Source of the DNA: a virus
Lineage: Duplodnaviria; Caudoviricetes
DNA: 45,446 nucleotides
Virus record (IMG/VR): IMGVR_UViG_3300005825_000268
Span: 1 to 45,446 of that record
Strand: one strand, 5' to 3'
Of this stretch, positions 7,751-42,799 are shown one piece after another (within the stretch, counting starts at the first letter, position 1; each line of letters begins with the position of its first letter). The notes under the pieces are model-generated. The model was not told the origin of the DNA, did no database searches, and saw only the letters and a program-made list of their open reading frames with translations. The translations under genes and the position numbers were made by a program.

Positions 7751-8026
7751 TTACAAATCTAATTCCCAACCTTTTTCTACTTCGGGAGCATCATATGGAC
7801 CCAAATCCAAAGAGTTGTATGTTTCTGTATTCCAAGGTGGCAATTCAGTTGTTAATGGCGGCAAAGCAAAATCGCTTATAATCACTTGTTCCGAACAAAT
7901 TGTGTCACTTAAACTTAGCTTTATTTGTTCGCCAAGATAATTTTCAAAATTCCAAACAGAAACATATATTGTCTTGAAATGTTCTGTTTCTTCTCGTCTC
8001 TTTTTTCGATCTAGCCAGTAATTCAT
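7751..8026 (-). CDS. Hypothetical protein, 91 aa
   Basis: ATGA overlap with the SET gene; fills the gap in the operon. Confidence 0.6.
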   Translation of the reverse strand: MNYWLDRKKRREETEHFKTIYVSVWNFENYLGEQIKLSLSDTICSEQVIISDFALPPLTTELPPWNTETYNSLDLGPYDAPEVEKGWELDL

Positions 8027-8559
8027 CTAATTAAGTCTCCTAAATTATAAAGGTCATGTTCAAGGAATGTTTCCCAATCCTTTTTAGATAGAGAAACATT
8101 TTCGTGAGTTTTATTTACCCATTTTAAAACTTTCTCCCAGCCTTCGCCGTAGTGTCCTAAAATTTCTTGATCTTTTGCAACGTCTTTTGTAAACCAATAA
8201 ACAGCCTTGTCCGCATGAAGACTTTTTTTAACGTATTCATCTCCAAGGTATCTTATTTCTACATTTTGCTTTTTTCTATCTTCTGTATGATTAACAATGC
8301 CTGCATAGCCGAGCGGGACAATCAAAAATGGCCCTATATCTATCAAATCGCCATTTCTTTTCACATCGGCAGCGAACTTGTATGCGTTCGCATAATACGA
8401 ACACTCATCGGCAACAGAATCTCTTGGAACTAAAACGCCTGTAATTTCTAACCAAGTATTTTTCTTAATTGGTTGTTTTGCGTAAAGTCCCTTGCCTGCT
8501 CTGTTTACGCTTGATTCTTTAATGTAAAAACGATCATCTGTCTCTTCAAAGATCAGCAT
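8023..8559 (-). CDS. SET-domain protein (putative protein-lysine methyltransferase)
   Basis: GKGLYAKQPIKK (motif I), GIVNH (RFINH-equivalent), DVAKDQEILGHYG (EL..DY-equivalent with Tyr). Confidence 0.88.
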   Translation of the reverse strand: MLIFEETDDRFYIKESSVNRAGKGLYAKQPIKKNTWLEITGVLVPRDSVADECSYYANAYKFAADVKRNGDLIDIGPFLIVPLGYAGIVNHTEDRKKQNVEIRYLGDEYVKKSLHADKAVYWFTKDVAKDQEILGHYGEGWEKVLKWVNKTHENVSLSKKDWETFLEHDLYNLGDLIR

Positions 8560-29107: not shown

Positions 29108-29674
29108 TTAGCTTAATCCTTGCGAATTTCCCGTATTAACACCGGGTTGTGGCGTTGCTGCGGCAGCAGGATTAGTCATGCGTTGTATTTGTTCACGAAC
29201 AGAATGGCGAATTGCTTCCACTTCTGACGGGTTCAGGGAACGAACCGAGGCGAGTACATTTAACAGGAAGGCACAATCTAGTTTTCTAATTTGCCTAATA
29301 CCACGTCTTTTATATTGGCGAAAGGCTGAAACTATATATTCATCTCCTTTAATGTTAGAGTAAGAAAAGCCAGAATTGTTGCAGTTCGGCTGTAATAATC
29401 TTTTAATATCTGGAAATGTTAGATAATGTAAATTGATCCCACGAATGTATTGCCCTGCTCTTGGTCCCGCTAAAGGATAACCAATGTCTGTTATTAGCAC
29501 CAAAGGATATGGGTCATGTCCGGGCTTATGAAAATTATAACTAAAACTTACCAAACTACCCTTATTGATGATTTGAGTCATTTTTGAGTAAATTGGCCCG
29601 TACTGATTGGCCCCAACCTTTGGGCTGTAAGGGCTTTGTCCAAATTGAGCGGGAGCAAAGAGATTTTCGTTCAT
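29108..29674 (-). CDS. DNA end protector protein (T4 gp2-like)
   Basis: F.Y..K..D.YPLVL..GINLHYL..Y..SAFRQY pattern matches the gp2 family. Start placed at MNENLF (29674). Confidence 0.75.
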   Translation of the reverse strand: MNENLFAPAQFGQSPYSPKVGANQYGPIYSKMTQIINKGSLVSFSYNFHKPGHDPYPLVLITDIGYPLAGPRAGQYIRGINLHYLTFPDIKRLLQPNCNNSGFSYSNIKGDEYIVSAFRQYKRRGIRQIRKLDCAFLLNVLASVRSLNPSEVEAIRHSVREQIQRMTNPAAAATPQPGVNTGNSQGLS

Positions 29675-29679
29675 AGAGT

Positions 29680-29686
29680 TATTTAG
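29680..29686 (-). promoter_or_regulatory. T4-late-like promoter CTAAATA
   Basis: CTAAATA lies 5 nt before ATG 29674; the same geometry occurs at 41202-41208. Confidence 0.6.
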
Positions 29687-29687
29687 A

Positions 29688-29716
29688 TTTACAGAAGGCA
29701 AAATCTGGGGTATAAT
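29688..29716 (+). promoter_or_regulatory. sigma70-like promoter TTTACA-17-TATAAT
   Basis: Exact 17-nt spacer ending in ctgggg. Intergenic at a strand switch. Confidence 0.7.
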
Positions 29717-29788
29717 CAAGTGATACTCCAAAGAGACTTACCGTATTGACCACGGAGGAACCATCCTTACCATTTGTGGAGAAATACA

Positions 29789-30971: not shown

Positions 30972-31892
30972 TTATTCTTCACCCTCAACTTTTTTCAATT
31001 TTGTATAATACTGAGGGTCTTCTCTTAGATGGGCAATCACGATCTTCAATAGATCGCCTTGTTTCTTTACAACATCTACATCTTTGCCCATTGCTCCATC
31101 GTGTTCTTTTTCTACGTTTAATCCCATCATTATTTGTTTGGGATCGAATGTAGAAACATTCAGGCCAGCAGACTTTGCTAATTTTTGAATATCAAAATTC
31201 ATTTGAGGAACGTATTCGCCTGTTGAACTTGCACTTGGCGTGTATGAGCCTGTGCCCGCCGTAGAGTTGCGATAACCTTCATCTTGCCCAATATAGCCCT
31301 GAATCTTTACAGGGTTCCATTTAACAAAATCTATATCGTTTAAAAGTCCATCTCTAAGAATTTGTAACTGATCTGGTGGGGCACCTTGAAGTAAATAATT
31401 CATTGTTCGGTGCCAACCTTCAAGTAACTTAAATCCCTTGTTGGTTTGAACAACCACAACAGGTTCATTTCCTTCACCACGCACGCCCATTAGTTCTTTT
31501 TGTTTGGCTGTGCGTGCCATATCGTTTCTAATTTGCTTTTCTTCACGCATACCGAAACGTCTGTCAAGCATTCTCCATTGTGTGTCTTCATCAAAATCGG
31601 CAGGAGTAACACCAACTGCTTGTCCCCACTTGCCTCGCAAAGTGGTAGGTTTTTTAGCCCAAGTAATATTTTTCAATCCAGATAATTTCATTATATCAGA
31701 AGGAGAACTTGCTGTTGGTTTAGAATTATTGGGAGAAGTTGGCCTCAAACTTTTATTGAAACTGTGTGCAATACGACTTGTATACAAGTCTTTTTGTACA
31801 TAATGAGGCATATCAGGATGTTCATTGCGAAACATTCTGTGCAAGCCCTTCAACCGTACCTCATCTAAATTTAACCATTCTTTGAAATTCAT
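30972..31892 (-). CDS. ParB/Srx-like domain plus C-terminal DUF5661-like domain protein
   Basis: EPVVVV..FKLLEGWHR (ParB/Srx DGxHR-like) and GLNVEKEH..IAHLREDPQYYTKL (DUF5661-like). N-terminus MNFKEWL. Confidence 0.7.
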   Translation of the reverse strand: MNFKEWLNLDEVRLKGLHRMFRNEHPDMPHYVQKDLYTSRIAHSFNKSLRPTSPNNSKPTASSPSDIMKLSGLKNITWAKKPTTLRGKWGQAVGVTPADFDEDTQWRMLDRRFGMREEKQIRNDMARTAKQKELMGVRGEGNEPVVVVQTNKGFKLLEGWHRTMNYLLQGAPPDQLQILRDGLLNDIDFVKWNPVKIQGYIGQDEGYRNSTAGTGSYTPSASSTGEYVPQMNFDIQKLAKSAGLNVSTFDPKQIMMGLNVEKEHDGAMGKDVDVVKKQGDLLKIVIAHLREDPQYYTKLKKVEGEE

Positions 31893-31893
31893 A

Positions 31894-32370
31894 TTACATC
31901 TTATTCAAAACTAAACTAGAATAATCAGAACCACCCGTTCTAAGCAAATAGTTATCTCCGGGTGATCCTAGTTGATTGCTCAATTCGTTTTCAGCCTCTG
32001 CACTTTTCTTGAAAAACTTTTTGATTTCTTTGGTTGTACTTTCCATAACTTTTCGAGCAGCTTGTTCCTCATTGATATTATCGCTCATAAAGTCGCTGAA
32101 CATATCTTCTAGGCTTAAAGAATAAGCAATTCCATAAGGATGAGTTTTTGGCTCTTTTTGTACACGATATGCCAACTCATTTCCTATTTCGTAGATTCGG
32201 ATTCCTTCAAAGCTCAAGTTTTCGGTGGCTTTGACAAATATGTACGGATCGTCATCTTCGAGAAAAGATTTAACATCCATTCCGTTTTTCTTTAACATTT
32301 TTTCCACCAACTTGAGATGGCGTTGTGCCTCTCGTTGGCGTCTATCTACGAATTCTAAAAATTGCTTCAT
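31894..32370 (-). CDS. Hypothetical protein (possible head/core protein)
   Basis: ATG 32370 overlaps the upstream TAA. N-terminus MKQFLEF. Confidence 0.7.
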   Translation of the reverse strand: MKQFLEFVDRRQREAQRHLKLVEKMLKKNGMDVKSFLEDDDPYIFVKATENLSFEGIRIYEIGNELAYRVQKEPKTHPYGIAYSLSLEDMFSDFMSDNINEEQAARKVMESTTKEIKKFFKKSAEAENELSNQLGSPGDNYLLRTGGSDYSSLVLNKM

Positions 32371-33689
32371 TAACAAGACCTCGTTAGAATTTCCGGTGCA
32401 TTTGGCCCACATCGCTGAAGAGTACGCAAATCACTTGGATTTCCAGTGTAAGGAGTTTCTTTCCAAACAATACCTTGAAAAGAAGTAGCCGCTTCTTTCA
32501 ATATGTTTTGTTGGGCAGTCAAAAATAGAATGCCGTCAATTCTTTCTAAGAAATCTTGCTCTTCTTTTTGAGGTTTTCCATCTTCATCTACTTCGCCAGT
32601 TTCTTTGACGAACTTAACTTTTAAGTCCACAAAAGGAATAATTGAACCATCATCATCAATCATGGCTTCAGAATTTTCTGATTGCATAGTACGAACAACC
32701 AATTTGCCGTCTGTATATGCTGCACGCAAAGAAGTAGACAAATCCCAACCTAAAGTATAAATGGTTCCATCATTGTCTGTTACATTGATAAGGAATGCTC
32801 TCTTGCGGAAGGTTTCGGCCATACTTTCCATGACGATTCTTTTGCGAAGAACTTCTTTTTCTTCTGGGGAACCTTCATCAAGTCTTTTTTGCTCAGGTTC
32901 GGTCAAATATCTTTCTGGGTCATCTTCTCGAAGACTCCATTTGCCAAGTTCAGTGCGGCCCCATTTATCATTGAAACGAGTAGAAATTCTGATCGAGTAA
33001 TCTTTTTCGTTGTAAATAACATCTTCATTGTTGGCACCACTACCAACTTGTATGCCACCCAATAGAGATGCAATAAATTTTCTGTGCAAGTCGCCCTTCA
33101 TTCCCAATAAACCTTTCAGCTTGATGAAAATGTTGTTTAATTCAGGCATTGTTTGCAAAGTGTTGGTAATGTGATTTACCAATGATACAGCGGGACTATT
33201 TTGGTCGAGTTCTTCACGAACTAATTTTCGTATTTCTTTTCCAGCCTTATCAATATTTGCATATTGTCTCAAAAACAAAACTTGCAGGTTGTCTTCTACA
33301 AATTTGCGAGGATAAGGTTCTAGGTGTAAATCTCGCACCTGAGTAATCATGTCAATTAGCTTTGTGACATCACCCTTTACAGATTCTTTGAAGAAAGAGT
33401 CCTTCCATCTCTCAAAATCCTGATCTTCCATTTCTTCTGGCATATCGGGAGCTTGTGGATCACCAGAAACATCTGGCATATTATCTTGTGCTTGCTCTTC
33501 TTCTTCAGGATTGCCACTCATTTGTTGTGGGGGTGGATTGGCCACATTTGGGTCGCCCGGTGGTGGAGCAGGCGCAGCACCCGGAGGGGCACCCATTTCC
33601 GGCATTCCGGGGGCACCTGTTGGTGGTTGACCCGAAGGCATCATTCCATCGGCTTCAATTAACCATTCTTCTATTGCGTAACCTTTCAT
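32370..33689 (-). CDS. Hypothetical protein with Pro-rich disordered N-terminus (possible prohead core protein)
   Basis: 439-aa ORF tightly packed in the operon. MKGYAIEEWLIEAD start followed by a P/G/E-rich linker. Confidence 0.7.
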   Translation of the reverse strand: MKGYAIEEWLIEADGMMPSGQPPTGAPGMPEMGAPPGAAPAPPPGDPNVANPPPQQMSGNPEEEEQAQDNMPDVSGDPQAPDMPEEMEDQDFERWKDSFFKESVKGDVTKLIDMITQVRDLHLEPYPRKFVEDNLQVLFLRQYANIDKAGKEIRKLVREELDQNSPAVSLVNHITNTLQTMPELNNIFIKLKGLLGMKGDLHRKFIASLLGGIQVGSGANNEDVIYNEKDYSIRISTRFNDKWGRTELGKWSLREDDPERYLTEPEQKRLDEGSPEEKEVLRKRIVMESMAETFRKRAFLINVTDNDGTIYTLGWDLSTSLRAAYTDGKLVVRTMQSENSEAMIDDDGSIIPFVDLKVKFVKETGEVDEDGKPQKEEQDFLERIDGILFLTAQQNILKEAATSFQGIVWKETPYTGNPSDLRTLQRCGPNAPEILTRSC

Positions 33690-33690
33690 A

Positions 33691-34200
33691 TTACCCCTTT
33701 TTCTTCTTAGCTTTATTGACTGCCTCTATTAACGCACGACGGCTATTACTTTGGCCACCTATATTTATGGTATTATTCTGAGATGCTGCTAAATATCTTG
33801 GGAATGTATCTTTTTCTTTTAATTTAACTCTTGTTTTCAAGTCAGCTATTTTTGCGGCCTTGTCTGCCAAATCGGTTTTCATTTTGACAAAGTTCACAAG
33901 TGCTTCTTTGCTGGAAGAAGTCGCATCTCCCTCGTTTATGACCATCTCGGCAATATTGTCAATAAATTCACTGACTTGCTTTCGATCTTCACGAATCATA
34001 TTCATGATTTCGTCATATGTATCAAGTAGGTCTTCATCGCCAATTAGATTTTCGGCCTCAACCATCTGAGTGGGCATACCAACATTCATTTTGGGAATCA
34101 AATCGTTAAATTCGTCTTCCGGCATAATTTCTGCAACTTGTTCGGGATTTTCTTCCAAAACAGGTTTTTCTATTTCCAGATTTTTGATCTCTTTTTCCAT
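33691..34200 (-). CDS. Putative terminase small subunit (T4 gp16-like)
   Basis: Acidic N-terminus, two long helices, and QNNTINIG..SRRALIE tail resembling the NNNxFVGSTxxL pattern of gp16-like proteins. Similarity is weak. Confidence 0.4.
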   Translation of the reverse strand: MEKEIKNLEIEKPVLEENPEQVAEIMPEDEFNDLIPKMNVGMPTQMVEAENLIGDEDLLDTYDEIMNMIREDRKQVSEFIDNIAEMVINEGDATSSSKEALVNFVKMKTDLADKAAKIADLKTRVKLKEKDTFPRYLAASQNNTINIGGQSNSRRALIEAVNKAKKKKG

Positions 34201-34243: not shown

Positions 34244-34732
34244 ATGCCAGCACCTAAACAACCAAAACCTGAATCAGAAGTCTTAATGGACCACTACAAT
34301 AATGTAAACGAGTCTATTAAGTCTGTATTTGATCTTTCGTCCAGAATTGACGAGAGGGTTAAAATGCTGGTTGAAAGACAAAGCAGCCACGAAGAACAAC
34401 TTGATAAAGCAATAGACAACCAACAACAAATAATTCAAAGAATTACTGTTTTGGAATCAAAGGATGTTGTGCATATAGCAACAGCCAACAAAGACAATAT
34501 TTCAGACATCAATAAACGAGTTGCTATTATGGAAAGTTCTGGATCAAAACAAGATATAGAAGACCTAAAACAAAAAATTCATTTGCTGGACTTGAGGGTA
34601 GAATCCATAAATATGAGAACTGCCAATCAAGAAGGTCGATGGGCTAAACTTTTCGACTTGGTATTTAAACTAACTATTATGTTAATAGGTGGTTATCTTC
34701 TATTCAAATTTGGATGGCAAGCTCCACCGTAA
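34244..34732 (+). CDS. Coiled-coil protein with C-terminal transmembrane helix
   Basis: Heptad repeats followed by LVFKLTIMLIGGYLLFKFGW. Architecture resembles XhlA/holin-like proteins. Confidence 0.7.
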   Translation: MPAPKQPKPESEVLMDHYNNVNESIKSVFDLSSRIDERVKMLVERQSSHEEQLDKAIDNQQQIIQRITVLESKDVVHIATANKDNISDINKRVAIMESSGSKQDIEDLKQKIHLLDLRVESINMRTANQEGRWAKLFDLVFKLTIMLIGGYLLFKFGWQAPP

Positions 34733-34749: not shown

Positions 34750-34756
34750 CTAAATA
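34750..34756 (+). promoter_or_regulatory. T4-late-like promoter CTAAATA
   Basis: Intergenic, 30 nt upstream of the nucleotidyltransferase gene. Confidence 0.55.
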
Positions 34757-34786: not shown

Positions 34787-36298
34787 ATGAAAGGTCATAT
34801 GAAAGGTTTATTTTCAAGATATTGCAATCTTCGTGAAGAGACTGGCACCAAGCCGTCAGGCCAAAGTGTAACTTCACGAATTAAACTACAAAAACAAGAA
34901 GGATCGAAGGAATTTGGTCCCTTCACTGTAAACAAGACAACCCATCCTAATCTTAGATTGCTTATCAAAGCGTTCACAGATAGCGATAAGGTTGGCGTGG
35001 GATACACAACCATCGAAAAGAACAAAGGTGAGGTAGAACCTCAACTCAAAAAGAAAGTTCTTTATTTGGTTGGTGGAGCCGTTCGTGACCACTTAAAAGG
35101 CAAAACCCCTCGCAATTATGACTTGGTTACAGACGCTACGCCTAGTGAAATGAGAATGATTCTAGGTAACGAAGAAAATGGTTTTGTAGAAACAAAACCA
35201 AGAGAAGGCGATTATGCCAGCGATGAAAGATATGCCAAATTACCTTCACCGGGCACTAAAAACAAAATGTTTTATGCTTCTCGTTGGGATAAACAAGGCA
35301 AAGAACTCGAAGTAACCGTTGAAATTAACGGAGAGAAATTTGAGTTAGCAACCATGTCTAAATCAGCAAAAAGTCGTCGTGTTACACCAGAAAAAGGCGA
35401 ACCAGCTTCCTCAGTCGAAGAAGATTCGGCAAATCGTGATTTTACCATTAACTCTTTGTATATTCCTCTAACCACAGCCGATGGCGATAATACAGAACTT
35501 ATTGATCCTCATGGCGGTGCCCATCACTTGAAGAGTGGCGAAGTTGTTTCTGTAGGCGATGGATTAGAAGACAGACTTTCTGAAGACCCATCCACAGCTT
35601 TAAGATATACCAAAATGGTTTCAAAGTTCGGCAACCCCGACAAAATTCCCGATAAAGACAAAGAAGCAATTACTAGACACAAAGATATGGCTGATGTCCC
35701 TTCAGATCATATTCATAAGGAATTTTTAGGCGGTCTTGAAAATCCAGATGGCGATCCACGCAAATATCTCAAAATGTTCAAAAGTCTTGGACTTCTTGGA
35801 AAGGTCTATCCCGGCTCTGATGATTTCGATGACGAAGATATGCCAGAAGGCTTGAGAGGCGACCGTTGGATGGCATCTGCTTGGGTCATGAAAGATAAAG
35901 ATGGCGATGAAATCAAAAAACTACTTGCTGATAATGGTTGGTCTAAACAAGAAGCTAATGATATTGCACATTTGGTGAAAATGTATCAATGGGGAACAAA
36001 GAACAAGTTCGATCCAGATATGTTTTATGATATGAAAAAGAATCCAAGTGGATTAACAAAAAGTAAAATTCGTGAATTTATGCAAATGGCAAAAGCACAT
36101 GGCCCCGAAGTCGATGCTTATCTAAATCACGACGATAGTGACATTACCCCCTATGTGGGTGGCGAAGGTTCTGGTCGTAAGGTTAATCCAGAATTTTCCA
36201 AGATTTTGGGTCGGACACCACAAGGCGGCGAATTTGAATCTCTAAAGAAGTTCCTTTCTACCAAGAGATTTAAGGATTCTGTTGGCAAAAAAGGATAA
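34787..36298 (+). CDS. Class II tRNA nucleotidyltransferase / poly(A) polymerase homologue with degenerate active site
   Basis: LYLVGGAVRDHL, EDSANRDFTINSL, LIDPHGG and SEDP motifs identify the family. Key residues are substituted (see findings). Confidence 0.9.
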   Translation: MKGHMKGLFSRYCNLREETGTKPSGQSVTSRIKLQKQEGSKEFGPFTVNKTTHPNLRLLIKAFTDSDKVGVGYTTIEKNKGEVEPQLKKKVLYLVGGAVRDHLKGKTPRNYDLVTDATPSEMRMILGNEENGFVETKPREGDYASDERYAKLPSPGTKNKMFYASRWDKQGKELEVTVEINGEKFELATMSKSAKSRRVTPEKGEPASSVEEDSANRDFTINSLYIPLTTADGDNTELIDPHGGAHHLKSGEVVSVGDGLEDRLSEDPSTALRYTKMVSKFGNPDKIPDKDKEAITRHKDMADVPSDHIHKEFLGGLENPDGDPRKYLKMFKSLGLLGKVYPGSDDFDDEDMPEGLRGDRWMASAWVMKDKDGDEIKKLLADNGWSKQEANDIAHLVKMYQWGTKNKFDPDMFYDMKKNPSGLTKSKIREFMQMAKAHGPEVDAYLNHDDSDITPYVGGEGSGRKVNPEFSKILGRTPQGGEFESLKKFLSTKRFKDSVGKKG

Positions 36299-36300
36299 TT

Positions 36301-36852
36301 ATGGAAAAGTTTATTTCATTTGAAGAGTGGCTTCAATCTCGTGATGAATTAGATGAAGCAATGACCCCAACCGCACGAAAATGGCTTGGTGCTGCCACGT
36401 TGGGTGCTGCCTCTTTGGGTGGATATTTTGGCATGGGTAGCGGGGATAATCCTGCTCCAAGTGTTTCTCATACTCCTGCTGCCCATGTACAACAAATGCC
36501 AGCACAACCACCAAGTACAGGTGGCGGATTTAAAGATTTTATGACCCAATCAGTCGATCCTGTAGAACCTCCTGCAATTCCTTCTAGTTATAAACGTGAA
36601 ACAGAACGTAAAAGATGGGATGCAAGTGAACAATTAAAGCTATTGCAAGCACTTCATGATGCTGGTATAACCGTTCGAGGCGGCTTGAGAACATCTGGTG
36701 TTCCACATGGCACTACAATTGATGTAAATGGTGATGATATTCCCGATAATCCTCAAGAAAATTACTTCAATACAGGTGACCGCACTTATTATGGAAAAAG
36801 CGGTAAAGCTCAATGGACTTGGGATGGTCGAAATATTCATCAGGCTAAATGA
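36301..36852 (+). CDS. Hypothetical protein with capsid-targeting-like N-terminus and hydrophobic helix
   Basis: MEKFISFEEWLQSRDELDE followed by WLGAATLGAASLGGYFG. Confidence 0.7.
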   Translation: MEKFISFEEWLQSRDELDEAMTPTARKWLGAATLGAASLGGYFGMGSGDNPAPSVSHTPAAHVQQMPAQPPSTGGGFKDFMTQSVDPVEPPAIPSSYKRETERKRWDASEQLKLLQALHDAGITVRGGLRTSGVPHGTTIDVNGDDIPDNPQENYFNTGDRTYYGKSGKAQWTWDGRNIHQAK

Positions 36853-37424
36853 AATTCGTATCACTCGGTAGCTTTTGTTCAGTTCGAGGAAATATTGACC
36901 TCTATTCAAACCAAGACAAATCCGAAACTTTATTTTTTGATTGGTTGTGGGGTCGATACGAAGGACTAATCTTTTTTATCGAATCAAAAGAATTTGAAGA
37001 ATTTGAATTAACAAAAGATAATCTTCAAATAGTAGGTTCAAACCCACCATATTGCAGTGTTTATTTGAAAGACCTGTATTCTATTCATGATTTGCCACTT
37101 GAATATACCGATCAAGATATACACAATTTTTTGTCCAAATACCGTAGAAGATACAATAGGACCAAAAAACTGCTCAAGTCAGAACCGTTGCATTTTATTT
37201 ATCGTGAAATGAAGACCATTAGTGAAGAACAAAAATTCCACTTGTTTGAACTTCTAAAAATGGAAAACTCAAAACACAAACTTTCGGTTATTGGTACAAC
37301 TGATGGTCCTAATAGAATTAACATAAATAAATTCAAAACACAATTTGAAGGCCAACCATCTTGGAAAGAAGAGCAAATCGACTGGCATACCATCTTTCTA
37401 CATCTCAGGTCCATCAGGCTGTGA
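36849..37424 (+). CDS. DUF1796-like putative papain-like cysteine peptidase
   Basis: FVSLGSFC, FFDWL, HD and KYRRRYNR motifs. ATGA overlap with the upstream gene. Confidence 0.75.
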   Translation: MKFVSLGSFCSVRGNIDLYSNQDKSETLFFDWLWGRYEGLIFFIESKEFEEFELTKDNLQIVGSNPPYCSVYLKDLYSIHDLPLEYTDQDIHNFLSKYRRRYNRTKKLLKSEPLHFIYREMKTISEEQKFHLFELLKMENSKHKLSVIGTTDGPNRININKFKTQFEGQPSWKEEQIDWHTIFLHLRSIRL

Positions 37425-37453: not shown

Positions 37454-37518
37454 CATGTGATACTACACAGACAATTACCGTATTGCTCAAGAACAGAGCA
37501 ATTTTGATGGAGTTTCCG

Positions 37519-38103
37519 ATGTTTACCCCTGAATCTAACCCTAAGCGGCGTAACCGTTTAGTGATCTATGACTTCGATGGAACCATCTTTCGTTCCCCTG
37601 ACCGGGAAGAAGGTTCGATGGCTTTCTACGAAGCAACTGGCAATCGGTGGCCACATCAAGGTTGGTGGGGTCGTATTGAAACTCTTACGCCACCAGTCAT
37701 TCCTGATCCCATTCCAGAAGAAATGTGGATTCAGGAAACCTTGGATTTTCACCAAAAAGACATCGAAGACGAAAATTCGTTTGTCGTGTTGATGACGGGT
37801 CGCCCATATAAGGTTCGTCGTCGGGTTCGAGAAATTCTCGATTCCAAGAATATTCTCTTCCATAGGGAGTATTATCGGGGTATGCCCGGTCAGAAGGGTC
37901 GGGATACGTTTGATATTAAAGTCAATATCATGGAAGAAGACCTTTTCCACGATGCCCTAAATATACTGGAAATTCATGAAGATCGACAAGAGCATTTGAG
38001 TGCTTTTATGACCAAGGCAAAAAGATGGAAGTCCTTGATGTCAAAGCACTTAGAGAAGATTATTATTCGTGATGTGCCTAATAATGTATATTATGAGTTT
38101 TAA
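37519..38103 (+). CDS. HAD phosphatase, Swiss-Army-Knife RNA-repair type (HAD_SAK)
   Basis: YDFDGTIFRSP, GWW, LMTGR, K and EDRxxH motifs. GGAG RBS before ATG 37519. Confidence 0.85.
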   Translation: MFTPESNPKRRNRLVIYDFDGTIFRSPDREEGSMAFYEATGNRWPHQGWWGRIETLTPPVIPDPIPEEMWIQETLDFHQKDIEDENSFVVLMTGRPYKVRRRVREILDSKNILFHREYYRGMPGQKGRDTFDIKVNIMEEDLFHDALNILEIHEDRQEHLSAFMTKAKRWKSLMSKHLEKIIIRDVPNNVYYEF

Positions 38104-40058: not shown

Positions 40059-40676
40059 ATGGCAAAGTATGTGGCCGCTCTATTCGCCAATAATAGAGCA
40101 GTGTCGGGCCTCAATCATGGCGATGCTTTTTCTAAGCTCTCCACAAATGAAAAAAATGGAGATATTGAAAGCGGCTTTATAGACGTTGAAACCGGCAAAT
40201 TCTTTAGCGATAACCTAAAAGTTTATCTTAAACAGGTTTATCTCTTGAGACACGGTGACGCTACTGGACAACACCATAATGACAAATTGACTGATTTGGG
40301 TGTTATTCAAAGTCACGTTCTGGCCGAAACCATCGAAGCGAAAAACATTTCTGAATTTGAATTCTTTTCAAGCCCCTACTTACGATGCAAGCAAACAGCA
40401 CAAATCATCGAAGAAAAGTCGGGGCTTAAATTTTGCGCTAAAGACTGCTTTAGAAAACAAGATGATGAAGAAAAAGAAGAACACTTTCTTGAACGTATTA
40501 TTTCTTTAATTGATTCGTTACCAGAAAAATCGGTTGTCGTTACACATACTGATATTATTTCAAATATCATATACCAAATGATGAACGAACAAGTTTGCTG
40601 CGTGCCTCACTGTAGTATTTCTTATATCAGTTCAAGAGAATTGATTATCTTGGAAAATTCGGGGCGGCGAATCTAG
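40059..40676 (+). CDS. Histidine phosphatase family protein with extra N-terminal domain
   Basis: LLRHG, LTDLG, SSPYLRCKQTA and VVVTH motifs. GGAGG RBS. Confidence 0.9.
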   Translation: MAKYVAALFANNRAVSGLNHGDAFSKLSTNEKNGDIESGFIDVETGKFFSDNLKVYLKQVYLLRHGDATGQHHNDKLTDLGVIQSHVLAETIEAKNISEFEFFSSPYLRCKQTAQIIEEKSGLKFCAKDCFRKQDDEEKEEHFLERIISLIDSLPEKSVVVTHTDIISNIIYQMMNEQVCCVPHCSISYISSRELIILENSGRRI

Positions 40677-41196
40677 GAGCTTTATTTAAATCAACTGCTG
40701 CTGCCGGTTGTTTTTGAGATAGATTTTTTTCTGACCATCTATTAAACATATCGTCATTCGCATGATAATTTGGATTTCTAAAAAACTGGAAATTCTGATT
40801 TCGAGTCATCTCGTGATTGACCTTGCTTAAAATGCCCCAGATATAGTTGTTGGGCAATTCAAAACCCATCATTTGATCCACTGTGCCCAATATATTGTTC
40901 TTTGGCAATTGTTTAAACCATCTTTTAGGGATAATGCAAACTACCACAGAGAAATCCCCGGCACGACTTAGCAAATCAACAAGATTTTGGACTTCCATTT
41001 GCTTGAAAGAGTTTATAAACTTATCCCTGTGAACGCCCTCAGATTCGTTTATATGGCCCCACGCCGTTTTATCGTCTGTTTGTCCTACAAACAGATAATG
41101 ATTTAAAACAAGCCGCTGTAGCTCGTCTATGCCACGTCCATATTCAACGGGCGAAGTCTCGGTCAGAAAAAAATCTTTAAATCCATGAAAGTTCAT
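40645..41196 (-). CDS. Hypothetical protein with capsid-targeting-like N-terminus
   Basis: MNFHGFKDFFLTE start, 5 nt after CTAAATA. Confidence 0.7.
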   Translation of the reverse strand: MNFHGFKDFFLTETSPVEYGRGIDELQRLVLNHYLFVGQTDDKTAWGHINESEGVHRDKFINSFKQMEVQNLVDLLSRAGDFSVVVCIIPKRWFKQLPKNNILGTVDQMMGFELPNNYIWGILSKVNHEMTRNQNFQFFRNPNYHANDDMFNRWSEKNLSQKQPAAAVDLNKAPRFAAPNFPR

Positions 41197-41201
41197 GTGG
41201 T

Positions 41202-41208
41202 TATTTAG
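41202..41208 (-). promoter_or_regulatory. T4-late-like promoter CTAAATA
   Basis: 5 nt before ATG 41196. Confidence 0.6.
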
Positions 41209-41211
41209 GGC

Positions 41212-41240
41212 TATACAGTTCTGTTTTCCTGTGGTACAAT
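41212..41240 (+). promoter_or_regulatory. sigma70-like promoter TATACA-17-TACAAT
   Basis: 17-nt spacer ending in ctgtgg. Upstream of the tyrS operon. Confidence 0.6.
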
Positions 41241-41270
41241 CCAGCAAATCTTTACACAAGGAGTTTTTGA

Positions 41271-41729
41271 ATGCCTTCTCCCAACTTTACTGAAAGAAAA
41301 AACCCTGCGATTCGTGATTCTGATTATGTAAAATCAGTAAGTATTTGTCTTAATCCACAAGATAACGGTGGAGAGTCGGTCACCTTGGAAGTTGATTTCT
41401 TTCATAATGGCGATCCAAAGAACTCTATTTATACAAATATTCACATTCAAAGCGGTTGTTATGGAGTGCATTCTAACCGCCAAAGTTTTTTTGGTGTGAG
41501 CATTGAAGCCTTTAGTGAATCTTTTCGACATATGACCGAAGTTGCATATCTGCTCGAAAAAGAAGGCCGACCTGATACCAAAAAGCCCGAAACCGTATCG
41601 TCCATGCAGGGACTTCATACAAAAGAGTCTCACAAGCTGGAAAAGATCAAAGAATTGATCGAGAACGCCGAAGATTACGACGTTCTATATGACATTGCAA
41701 CCATCGTTGGGGCTGATGTTGAAACATGA
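41271..41729 (+). CDS. Hypothetical protein, 152 aa
   Basis: AAGGAG RBS. ATGA overlap with tyrS. Confidence 0.7.
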   Translation: MPSPNFTERKNPAIRDSDYVKSVSICLNPQDNGGESVTLEVDFFHNGDPKNSIYTNIHIQSGCYGVHSNRQSFFGVSIEAFSESFRHMTEVAYLLEKEGRPDTKKPETVSSMQGLHTKESHKLEKIKELIENAEDYDVLYDIATIVGADVET

Positions 41730-42799
41730 ATATCTTTCCTGAAAATGCCGATATTTCACCCAGCAAACGGGTAAAATTTGGTATTGATCCCACGTTTCCC
41801 CGATTACACCTTGGACACTTTATTCCAATTCGTCTTGTCAAAAAGATGAAGGAACAAGGTCATAAGGTAACTATTGTCCTTGGAACATTTACCGCCCAAT
41901 TAGGCGACCCGTCAGGACGTGATAATACACGTCCTATTTTGTCTGAGAATGAAGTCAAGCAAAACGCCGATTCAATTCTTGAAACGGTTAAAAACTTGCT
42001 TGGCGACGATGTTGATTTCTTTCCAAATCATTGGATACACAATTCGATGACGCTCCCGAACTTCCTTCGGGATATTGTCTCTAAATTTACGCTAAGTCAT
42101 ATGATTAGCAGAAATGCATTCGCAAATAGGATTGAAAATAATCATCCTATTGCAATGCATGAATTACTTGTGCCAATGCTCCAAGGTATGGATTCGGTAC
42201 ATTTGAAAACTGAAATTGAAATTGGCGGGCAGGACCAACTTTTTAATTTTCAAATTGCTCGTAGTCTTCAAGAAAGTCACGGGCAAAAGCCGCAAACCTG
42301 CATTATGTTGCCAGTTATCAATGGCACCGATGGCAGGAAAATGAGCAAGTCGTTTGGCAATTGCATTTTCTTAGATGAAACAGCCACAGATATTTTCGGG
42401 AAAGTAATGAGCATTCCCGATTCAGTCATGGTTGAATGGTTTCCACTACTTACGGATTGTTCCGTAACTGATTTGCATCCAATGGAAGCAAAAAAGAAAT
42501 TGGCATTTGAAATTGTCAAACAAATTCAAAGTGAAGACGCAGCAAAAGATGCTCAAATCTTTTTTGAAAAAACTGTGCAACACAAAGAATTGCCTGACAA
42601 TATTCCTATCACTCATGGCGACCGGACCTTACTTAAAGTCGTTCAGGAAATGAGGAATTGCAGTATTACTGCTGCCCGAAAACTTCTGCTTGGCCGAGGC
42701 GTGAAAATTGATGGTGTTGTTTGTTTGGATGGCAACACACCTATTCTACATGGCCAGATCATTCAAGTGGGCAAAAGAGATTTTACAAAAGTTTCTTGA
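41726..42799 (+). CDS. tyrS: Tyrosyl-tRNA synthetase (bacterial TyrZ/type 2-like, compact)
   Basis: KFGIDPT..LHLGH, GDPSGR, QGMDS, GGQDQ, KMSKS and C-terminal S4-like QVGKRDF. Confidence 0.95.
   Translation: MNIFPENADISPSKRVKFGIDPTFPRLHLGHFIPIRLVKKMKEQGHKVTIVLGTFTAQLGDPSGRDNTRPILSENEVKQNADSILETVKNLLGDDVDFFPNHWIHNSMTLPNFLRDIVSKFTLSHMISRNAFANRIENNHPIAMHELLVPMLQGMDSVHLKTEIEIGGQDQLFNFQIARSLQESHGQKPQTCIMLPVINGTDGRKMSKSFGNCIFLDETATDIFGKVMSIPDSVMVEWFPLLTDCSVTDLHPMEAKKKLAFEIVKQIQSEDAAKDAQIFFEKTVQHKELPDNIPITHGDRTLLKVVQEMRNCSITAARKLLLGRGVKIDGVVCLDGNTPILHGQIIQVGKRDFTKVS

Follow-up and report, generated by a model that had tools for sequence, protein, structure and literature searches.

A conserved CCA-enzyme homologue of huge phages that has repeatedly lost its catalytic motif and is probably dead as an enzyme

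Class II CCA enzymes (PF01743; 4X4W, 1OU5, 6Q52, 1MIV) and bacterial poly(A) polymerase (3AQM) are the closest described relatives of the phage protein reported here, which is alike in its whole fold and in the GGxVRD and RDFTIN segments. In these enzymes RRD serves ribose recognition and BxA probably positions the tRNA 3′ end (PMC2910056). In the E. coli enzyme neither D21A/D23A nor D23A complements and position 23 recovered only Asp, in 15 of 15 colonies, while the change of the EDxxR Arg to Ala relaxes specificity and activity survives (PMC6468291). For the template Asp and Arg of motif D in the human enzyme no substitutes were recovered (PMC11784652). The CCA enzymes of jumbo and huge phages are listed as tRNA repair or translation genes, and the parts available of the two papers concerned make no mention of an inactive form (PMC7824862, PMC7162821). 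A report of an inactive phage CCA homologue was not found in the literature searched, a scope that leaves out subscription journals and bioRxiv supplements. Inactive relatives are known elsewhere in the Pol-beta fold, namely the DZF proteins and MiD49/51, which are scaffolds or nucleotide binders of eukaryotes. They have kept the fold, lost the catalytic acids and shifted to a binding role, as would be the case here; they differ in belonging to an unrelated lineage, whereas the present protein has the class II CCA fold and occurs in phages with living intact orthologues.

The window, by which we mean the whole stretch of 45,446 nucleotides that was analyzed (IMG/VR record IMGVR_UViG_3300005825_000268), is a 45-kb piece of a T4-like myovirus; it carries genes for baseplate and tail, for gp2 and for a tyrosyl-tRNA synthetase, and no tRNA gene was found in it. 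Relatives are found on contigs as long as 670 kb. The database gene call of the CCA-like protein begins at Met5 and gives 499 aa (Table 1). PF01743 is the sole Pfam match and PHROGs labels the protein a tRNA nucleotidyltransferase (PHROG 2244, E 1e-25), the family of the phage enzymes mentioned above. Against the class II enzymes, DxD, BxA, the first Arg of RRD, the Arg of EDxxR, the ER of motif E and the third carboxylate are lost or unconserved, and an N-terminal tag, a hairpin at residues 70–90 and an insert at residues 128–159 are added. A sequence-only reading of this locus had described three rewritten motifs in an otherwise intact ORF of 503 aa with no evident HD domain. Its readings of motif A (Asn110, codon AAT), motif B and motif D all hold, the ORF is stop-free and encodes the full fold, and Pfam finds no HD domain; the count of three was too low, as the losses at BxA (Ser191) and motif E (DH) and the unconserved Glu186 had been missed. 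Estuary metatranscriptome contigs are letter-identical to the window over 34905–35165 and 35475–35625, pieces which span the Asn110 codon and motif D, while among the matches listed none reaches the NRD codon; the identity confirms the letters, and being one of contigs only does not show transcription, strand or timing.

Table 1. Features of the CCA-like gene and its surroundings in the window. Linkage counts refer to 42 distinct loci, the denominators being loci with enough flank.
Feature	Position	Strand	Detail
T4 gp2-like DNA end protector	29108..29731	-	PHROG 429, E 2e-5; within 6 kb in 32/40 loci
~160-aa protein, no known family	31894..32412	-	linked in 39/40 loci
439-aa protein, no known family	32370..33689	-	linked in 39/40 loci
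Helical-hairpin protein, small-terminase-like (lead only)	33691..34200	-	linked in 38/40 loci
Coiled-coil protein, hydrophobic C-terminus, upstream	34244..34732	+	PHROG 937 'hemolysin', E 1.7e-9; linked in 36/40 loci
CTAAATA, conserved promoter-like word	34750..34756	+	upstream of CCA-like ORF
Class II CCA-enzyme-fold protein with degenerate active site	34787..36298	+	503 aa; start maybe Met5 at 34799
N-terminal tag, residues 5-18 (Phe9, aromatic 12, L-R-E-E)	34799..34840	+	F9 in 116/120 and E17 in 119/120 rows (best of 315 matches)
Clade-specific beta-hairpin insertion, residues 70-90	34994..35056	+	mean conservation 0.87 vs 0.67 for whole protein
Motif A: N-Y-D instead of DxD	35114..35122	+	Asn110 = AAT at 35114, in R-N-Y-D
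Third carboxylate Glu186 (unconserved in family) and BxA basic position, Ser191 instead of Arg	35342..35359	+	
Motif B: NRD instead of RRD	35432..35440	+	residues 216-218
Motif D: EDPST instead of EDxxR	35582..35596	+	residues 266-270
Motif E: DHIHKE instead of ERxxxE	35705..35722	+	DH at 307-308
HAD phosphatase (PF10307), variable downstream neighbour	37483..38103	+	15/31 loci

The AlphaFold model, built from 117 sequences (pLDDT 90.1, pTM 0.83), contains head, neck, body and tail, together with a helix at residues 8–18. When it was compared by VIA-align with the top PDB chains and a viral library, the best match was the human CCA enzyme 4x4w (Z 26.1, rmsd 6.0, 364 residues aligned over model 31–494), followed by other class II enzymes, so that the modelling suggested earlier returned the full class II CCA-enzyme fold.

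A family alignment was made from the query and 119 of the best 120 of 315 matches, the window's own record being excluded, and these homologues are 50–88% identical to the window protein. Among the resulting 120 rows from the best of the 315 matches DxD does not occur at all: motif A reads NYD in 96, NYN in 10, GYD in 7, DYN in 3, SYD in 2 and NHN in 1, with a gap in the remaining row. The same rows show NRD (107), GRD (8), SRD (3) or TRD (2) at motif B, never with the first Arg; the last position of motif D is Thr in 103 and Arg in none, and the third carboxylate position is occupied by E in 34, N in 30, D in 12 and other residues in 44. The BxA Arg and the ER of motif E are also lost. The effect of Asp-to-Asn at the first Asp of motif A is judged from what is generally known of Pol-beta enzymes. 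Nei–Gojobori dN/dS was obtained for 17 pairs, two of them saturated (window against L021 and L022) and one identical, and amounted to 0.033–0.091 in dead–dead pairs (n = 10), 0.054–0.105 in intact pairs (n = 3) and 0.057 in one mixed pair. The homologue alignment that the sequence-only reading had called for thus finds the altered motifs shared, DxD in none of 120 rows and dN/dS below 0.1. A sequencing error or a decaying pseudogene, for which nothing speaks beyond the motif losses themselves, is refuted by the independent contigs that match two of the three motifs, by the same state in 119 homologues and by the low dN/dS, and its probability is negligible.

Wider searches placed the protein in a phage clade whose hallmark is an extended N-terminus that includes a hairpin ahead of motif A; the clade has a support of 0.967 in a FastTree tree of 185 of 189 rows (four fragments dropped, motif columns removed). 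DxD is absent from 84 of the 111 clade rows and present in 27 (22 rows are fully intact), and all 74 enzymes sampled from outside the clade keep it; since rows were sampled by likeness to the query, dead forms are over-represented and these proportions are not population frequencies. A maximum-likelihood tree was inferred with IQ-TREE from 46 hand-chosen rows (26 dead, 14 intact, 6 outside), again without the motif columns. It needs nine state changes, at least seven of them forced by well-supported branches, and rejects a single origin of the DxD loss (p-AU 1.4e-58); the changes are read as losses because the outgroup is intact. DxD was therefore lost at least seven separate times from an active orthologue. 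The earlier reading had regarded canonical motifs in close homologues as a sign of decay or error. Such motifs are indeed found in more distant true orthologues (41–44% identity), but DxD is in none of the 120 closest rows, and canonical motifs at that distance indicate loss from an active ancestor and not sequencing error. Dead and intact forms share one gene block, which also surrounds the intact gene of the 595-kb genome LR756511.1, one of the PHROG 2244 orthologues at this same locus. The sole full-length match among 50,697 GenBank phage records is an uncultured genome.

What is new here is a single orthologue of a huge-phage clade, at a constant position next to morphogenesis genes, in which DxD was lost repeatedly from intact orthologues; it is a real and conserved variant of a known enzyme family and not an ordinary one. 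With DxD missing from all 120 rows, purifying selection and repeated loss, the claim of a pseudo-enzyme is well supported, and we consider it very probable, judging from the residues, that the window protein is catalytically dead as a nucleotidyltransferase. Databases annotate proteins of the dead form as tRNA nucleotidyltransferases, and for this reason tallies of how much tRNA repair huge phages can do take in genes whose products are probably inactive. That a core gene repeatedly loses catalysis and is never dropped points to an unrecognised non-catalytic role of a textbook enzyme fold, and matched dead and intact orthologues such as L061 and L062 are direct test material for it. The pair L061/L065 against L062 may represent an early stage of loss. 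Partly changed orthologues (EDQSR, or DYN with EDQGR) occur in phages L102, L103 and L105, which also carry a short nucleotidyltransferase of 237 aa with intact motifs.

It had also been proposed that the protein is an active nucleotidyltransferase with new specificity, for which Asp112, Asp116, Asp168, Glu173 and Glu175 might supply the metal ligands. Among the 120 rows from the best of 315 matches, Asp112 is kept in 105, Glu173 and Asp168 in 119 and the derived Glu175 in 109, and the E. coli enzyme is relaxed but not killed by loss of the EDxxR Arg (PMC6468291). Yet in 11 of the same 120 rows both motif A positions lack a carboxylate and in three the one that is kept is swapped, while Asp116, Asp168 and Glu173 are common in DxD-bearing clade members too (21, 24 and 15 of 27) and thus are not compensations. 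Seven or more separate losses with differing replacements have the look of a relaxation of catalysis. The proposal is poorly supported, since the metal-ligand positions drift (NYD, NYN, GYD, DYN, SYD) and the third carboxylate is free, and we regard it as improbable.

The surfaces that hold substrates in active enzymes appear from the alignments to erode, while clade-specific elements persist. At eight cleft sites the mean number of basic residues is 2.7 in dead forms, 7.1 in clade members with DxD and 7.6 outside the clade, and the window protein has two. Net charge of neck and body is −0.9 in dead against +3.6 in DxD forms, a comparison whose p value is inflated because the rows are related; it is −9 in the window protein, and it is lower in the dead member of 7 of 9 hand-picked dead/intact pairs. 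Residue 175 has changed from Val to an acidic residue in 54 of 84 dead rows. The segments that the main dead clade conserves best are motif A (0.92), hairpin 70–90 (0.87), hairpin 160–175 (0.83) and loop 227–249 (0.82), against 0.67 overall. The loss of the basic cleft and of the tRNA-positioning motif speaks against both new chemistry and a clamp on tRNA ends.

These surfaces bear on the suggestion that the protein is a non-catalytic binder of tRNA or RNA ends, which would shield 3′ ends from host nucleases or toxins or hand tRNAs to the host CCA enzyme. The entire head–neck–body–tail fold is kept over the span aligned to 4x4w, these phages have many tRNA genes without CCA (it is encoded in 0 of 55, 2 of 58 and 1 of 10), and a phosphatase of RNA-repair type is near in about half of the loci. 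Against it stand the lost BxA Arg, which is said to position the tRNA 3′ end (PMC2910056), the depleted cleft, the lower charge of neck and body, the acidic residue 175 and the absence of the phosphatase within 6 kb at 16 of 31 loci. The earlier idea of a tRNA-end shield is weakened by the loss of cleft basics and BxA and by a less basic neck and body, and we consider binding of this kind unlikely. A nucleotide-binding pseudoenzyme, in which a half-kept pocket would hold an NTP or signalling nucleotide unturned and act as a sensor or sponge that arrives with the DNA, draws on GGxVRD, Arg217, Asp218, Asn222, Asp267 and Arg273, kept in 81–100% of 84 dead rows, and on the strongly conserved motif A segment. 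Several of the kept residues contact nucleotide in solved enzymes. They may equally be structural, and the base-reading Arg270, Arg216, Arg308 and Lys315 are lost, with replacements that differ between dead lineages, so this explanation is quite unlikely. The replacing residues are 85–90% fixed in the main dead clade, and their conservation together with that of motif A leaves a ligand-binding role open and counts against an account based on protein contacts.

The upstream word CTAAATA would be T4-late-like. Of 47 distinct orthologous upstream regions, 33 have TAAATA no more than 70 nt ahead of the start (shuffled mean 5.7, maximum 12). Window-wide the word is not enriched (19 observed against 26.2 expected), a sigma-70 scan remained at chance level, and a crude search for a late sigma factor gave no candidate. 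The N-terminal tag, which may resemble T4 capsid-targeting propeptides, shows its pattern in 116 of 120 family rows (query and best 119 of 315 matches), and in 94 of 111 clade rows against 15 of 74 outside. In T4, propeptides of 10–20 residues load the internal proteins and Alt (PMC5694885, PMC3012670). A targeting propeptide of this type is short and ends in a protease site, and a conserved N-terminal peptide with L-x-E at its end may be common to these proteins and the present one. The difference is that the present tag is known from the sequence and that its pattern also matches non-virion enzymes. Three related genomes have 30, 20 and 38 tag-like N-termini against shuffled means of 5–6 (3.5–8×), as counted with a crude ORF caller that includes false frames, and across these genomes the tag is associated with TAAATA (Fisher p 1e-8, 6e-9 and 5e-4; 0.08 in the window). 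For 101 genes of two genomes with tag, TAAATA or both, PHROGs names five late or structural types (portal, baseplate wedge, tail protein, a weak endolysin and a weak late activator) and about 12 non-structural enzymes, including primase, thymidylate kinase and methylases, and leaves most unnamed. Since the class includes non-structural enzymes, tag and word are not a clean late or virion signature. Of the earlier claims of a late-like promoter and a capsid-targeting-like N-terminus, then, the elements themselves are present, conserved and associated, and what does not follow is a clearly structural gene class. Late expression and head targeting of the protein are plausible.

We suggest that the ancestral orthologue was bifunctional, combining CCA addition with a second job borne by the clade-specific surfaces (tag, N-terminal extension and hairpin 70–90). 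CCA addition would have been dispensable, being covered by the host enzyme or, in some phages, by a second intact phage enzyme, and the second job indispensable, so that the cleft could erode many times with the gene retained. The dead protein would be made late, directed by its tag to the phage head, and act through protein contacts. Taken as a whole, this account of a late-made, head-targeted pseudoenzyme is tentative, with a chance somewhat short of even. In its broader form, that the CCA fold has a second function in huge phages as a core head-packaged and injected scaffold, sensor or sponge, working through the hairpin surface or the half-kept nucleotide pocket, it is doubtful. If it were true, each intact orthologue would do both jobs, and the active site, having died seven or more separate times, would offer a natural experiment on the second function alone.

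A second, fully intact CCA gene accompanies the dead form in six records (G002, G003, G018, G023, G024 and G027), and with one short enzyme of 237 aa this makes 7 of 36 dead-form records, most of which are fragments. The dead form as a recent duplicate of the phage's second gene is rejected, the two being 26% identical and the second copies lying outside the clade (100/99 support). That the dead form is always backed by another phage enzyme is rejected as well, as the sole complete dead-form record has none. The four clade records rated at least 90% complete have either the dead gene alone (G008) or the intact gene alone (G029, G035 and G040). In G008 (533 kb, rated 100% complete) the dead gene stands alone beside 55 tRNA genes none of which encodes CCA, so that a second phage enzyme is dispensable and CCA addition by the host has to be assumed. 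The same genome would suit residual low-rate CCA or CC addition; all five motifs are damaged, single changes there fail in vivo in model enzymes (PMC6468291, PMC11784652) and 10 of 14 control bacteria have their own PF01743 gene, which makes such activity very improbable. One 70% match in a MAG sits in the phage gene block and probably represents a binned phage contig. The separate intact CCA enzymes of L011, L104 and L107–L110 also start with a tag-like peptide, so that some of these phages may package a CCA enzyme that is active. ARAGORN finds three CUA-anticodon tRNAs and one UCA-anticodon tRNA in G008 (L127–L153), possibly for stop-codon suppression.

The CCA-like gene belongs to a block that adjoins gp2, tape measure and baseplate genes, the gp2 and baseplate neighbours in the window being T4-like. 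The phosphatase is rejected as an obligate partner, with 15 of 31 loci against 36–39 of 40 for the upstream block. For the protein at 33691–34200 an atlas gives a PF11053 lead on 14–34% of cluster members, and neither Pfam, PDB-profile and fold searches nor a family search over five genomes supported a small-terminase identity. The neighbours of 439 and about 160 aa are likely core morphogenesis genes; the N-terminus of the larger is rich in Pro, and its C-terminal domain is strongly conserved (44–87% identity across the clade). In one relative the coiled-coil and CCA-like genes are separated by an inserted HNH-like gene (L193:1800-2966). Tag-like N-termini also occur in the window on three proteins whose function is not known, at 36301–36852(+), which starts 2 nt after the CCA-like stop, 30972–31892(−) and 40645–41259(−). 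The window further encodes a SET-domain protein at 8023–8559(−), a papain-like DUF1796 protein at 36849–37424(+) and, at 41726–42799(+), the tyrosyl-tRNA synthetase.
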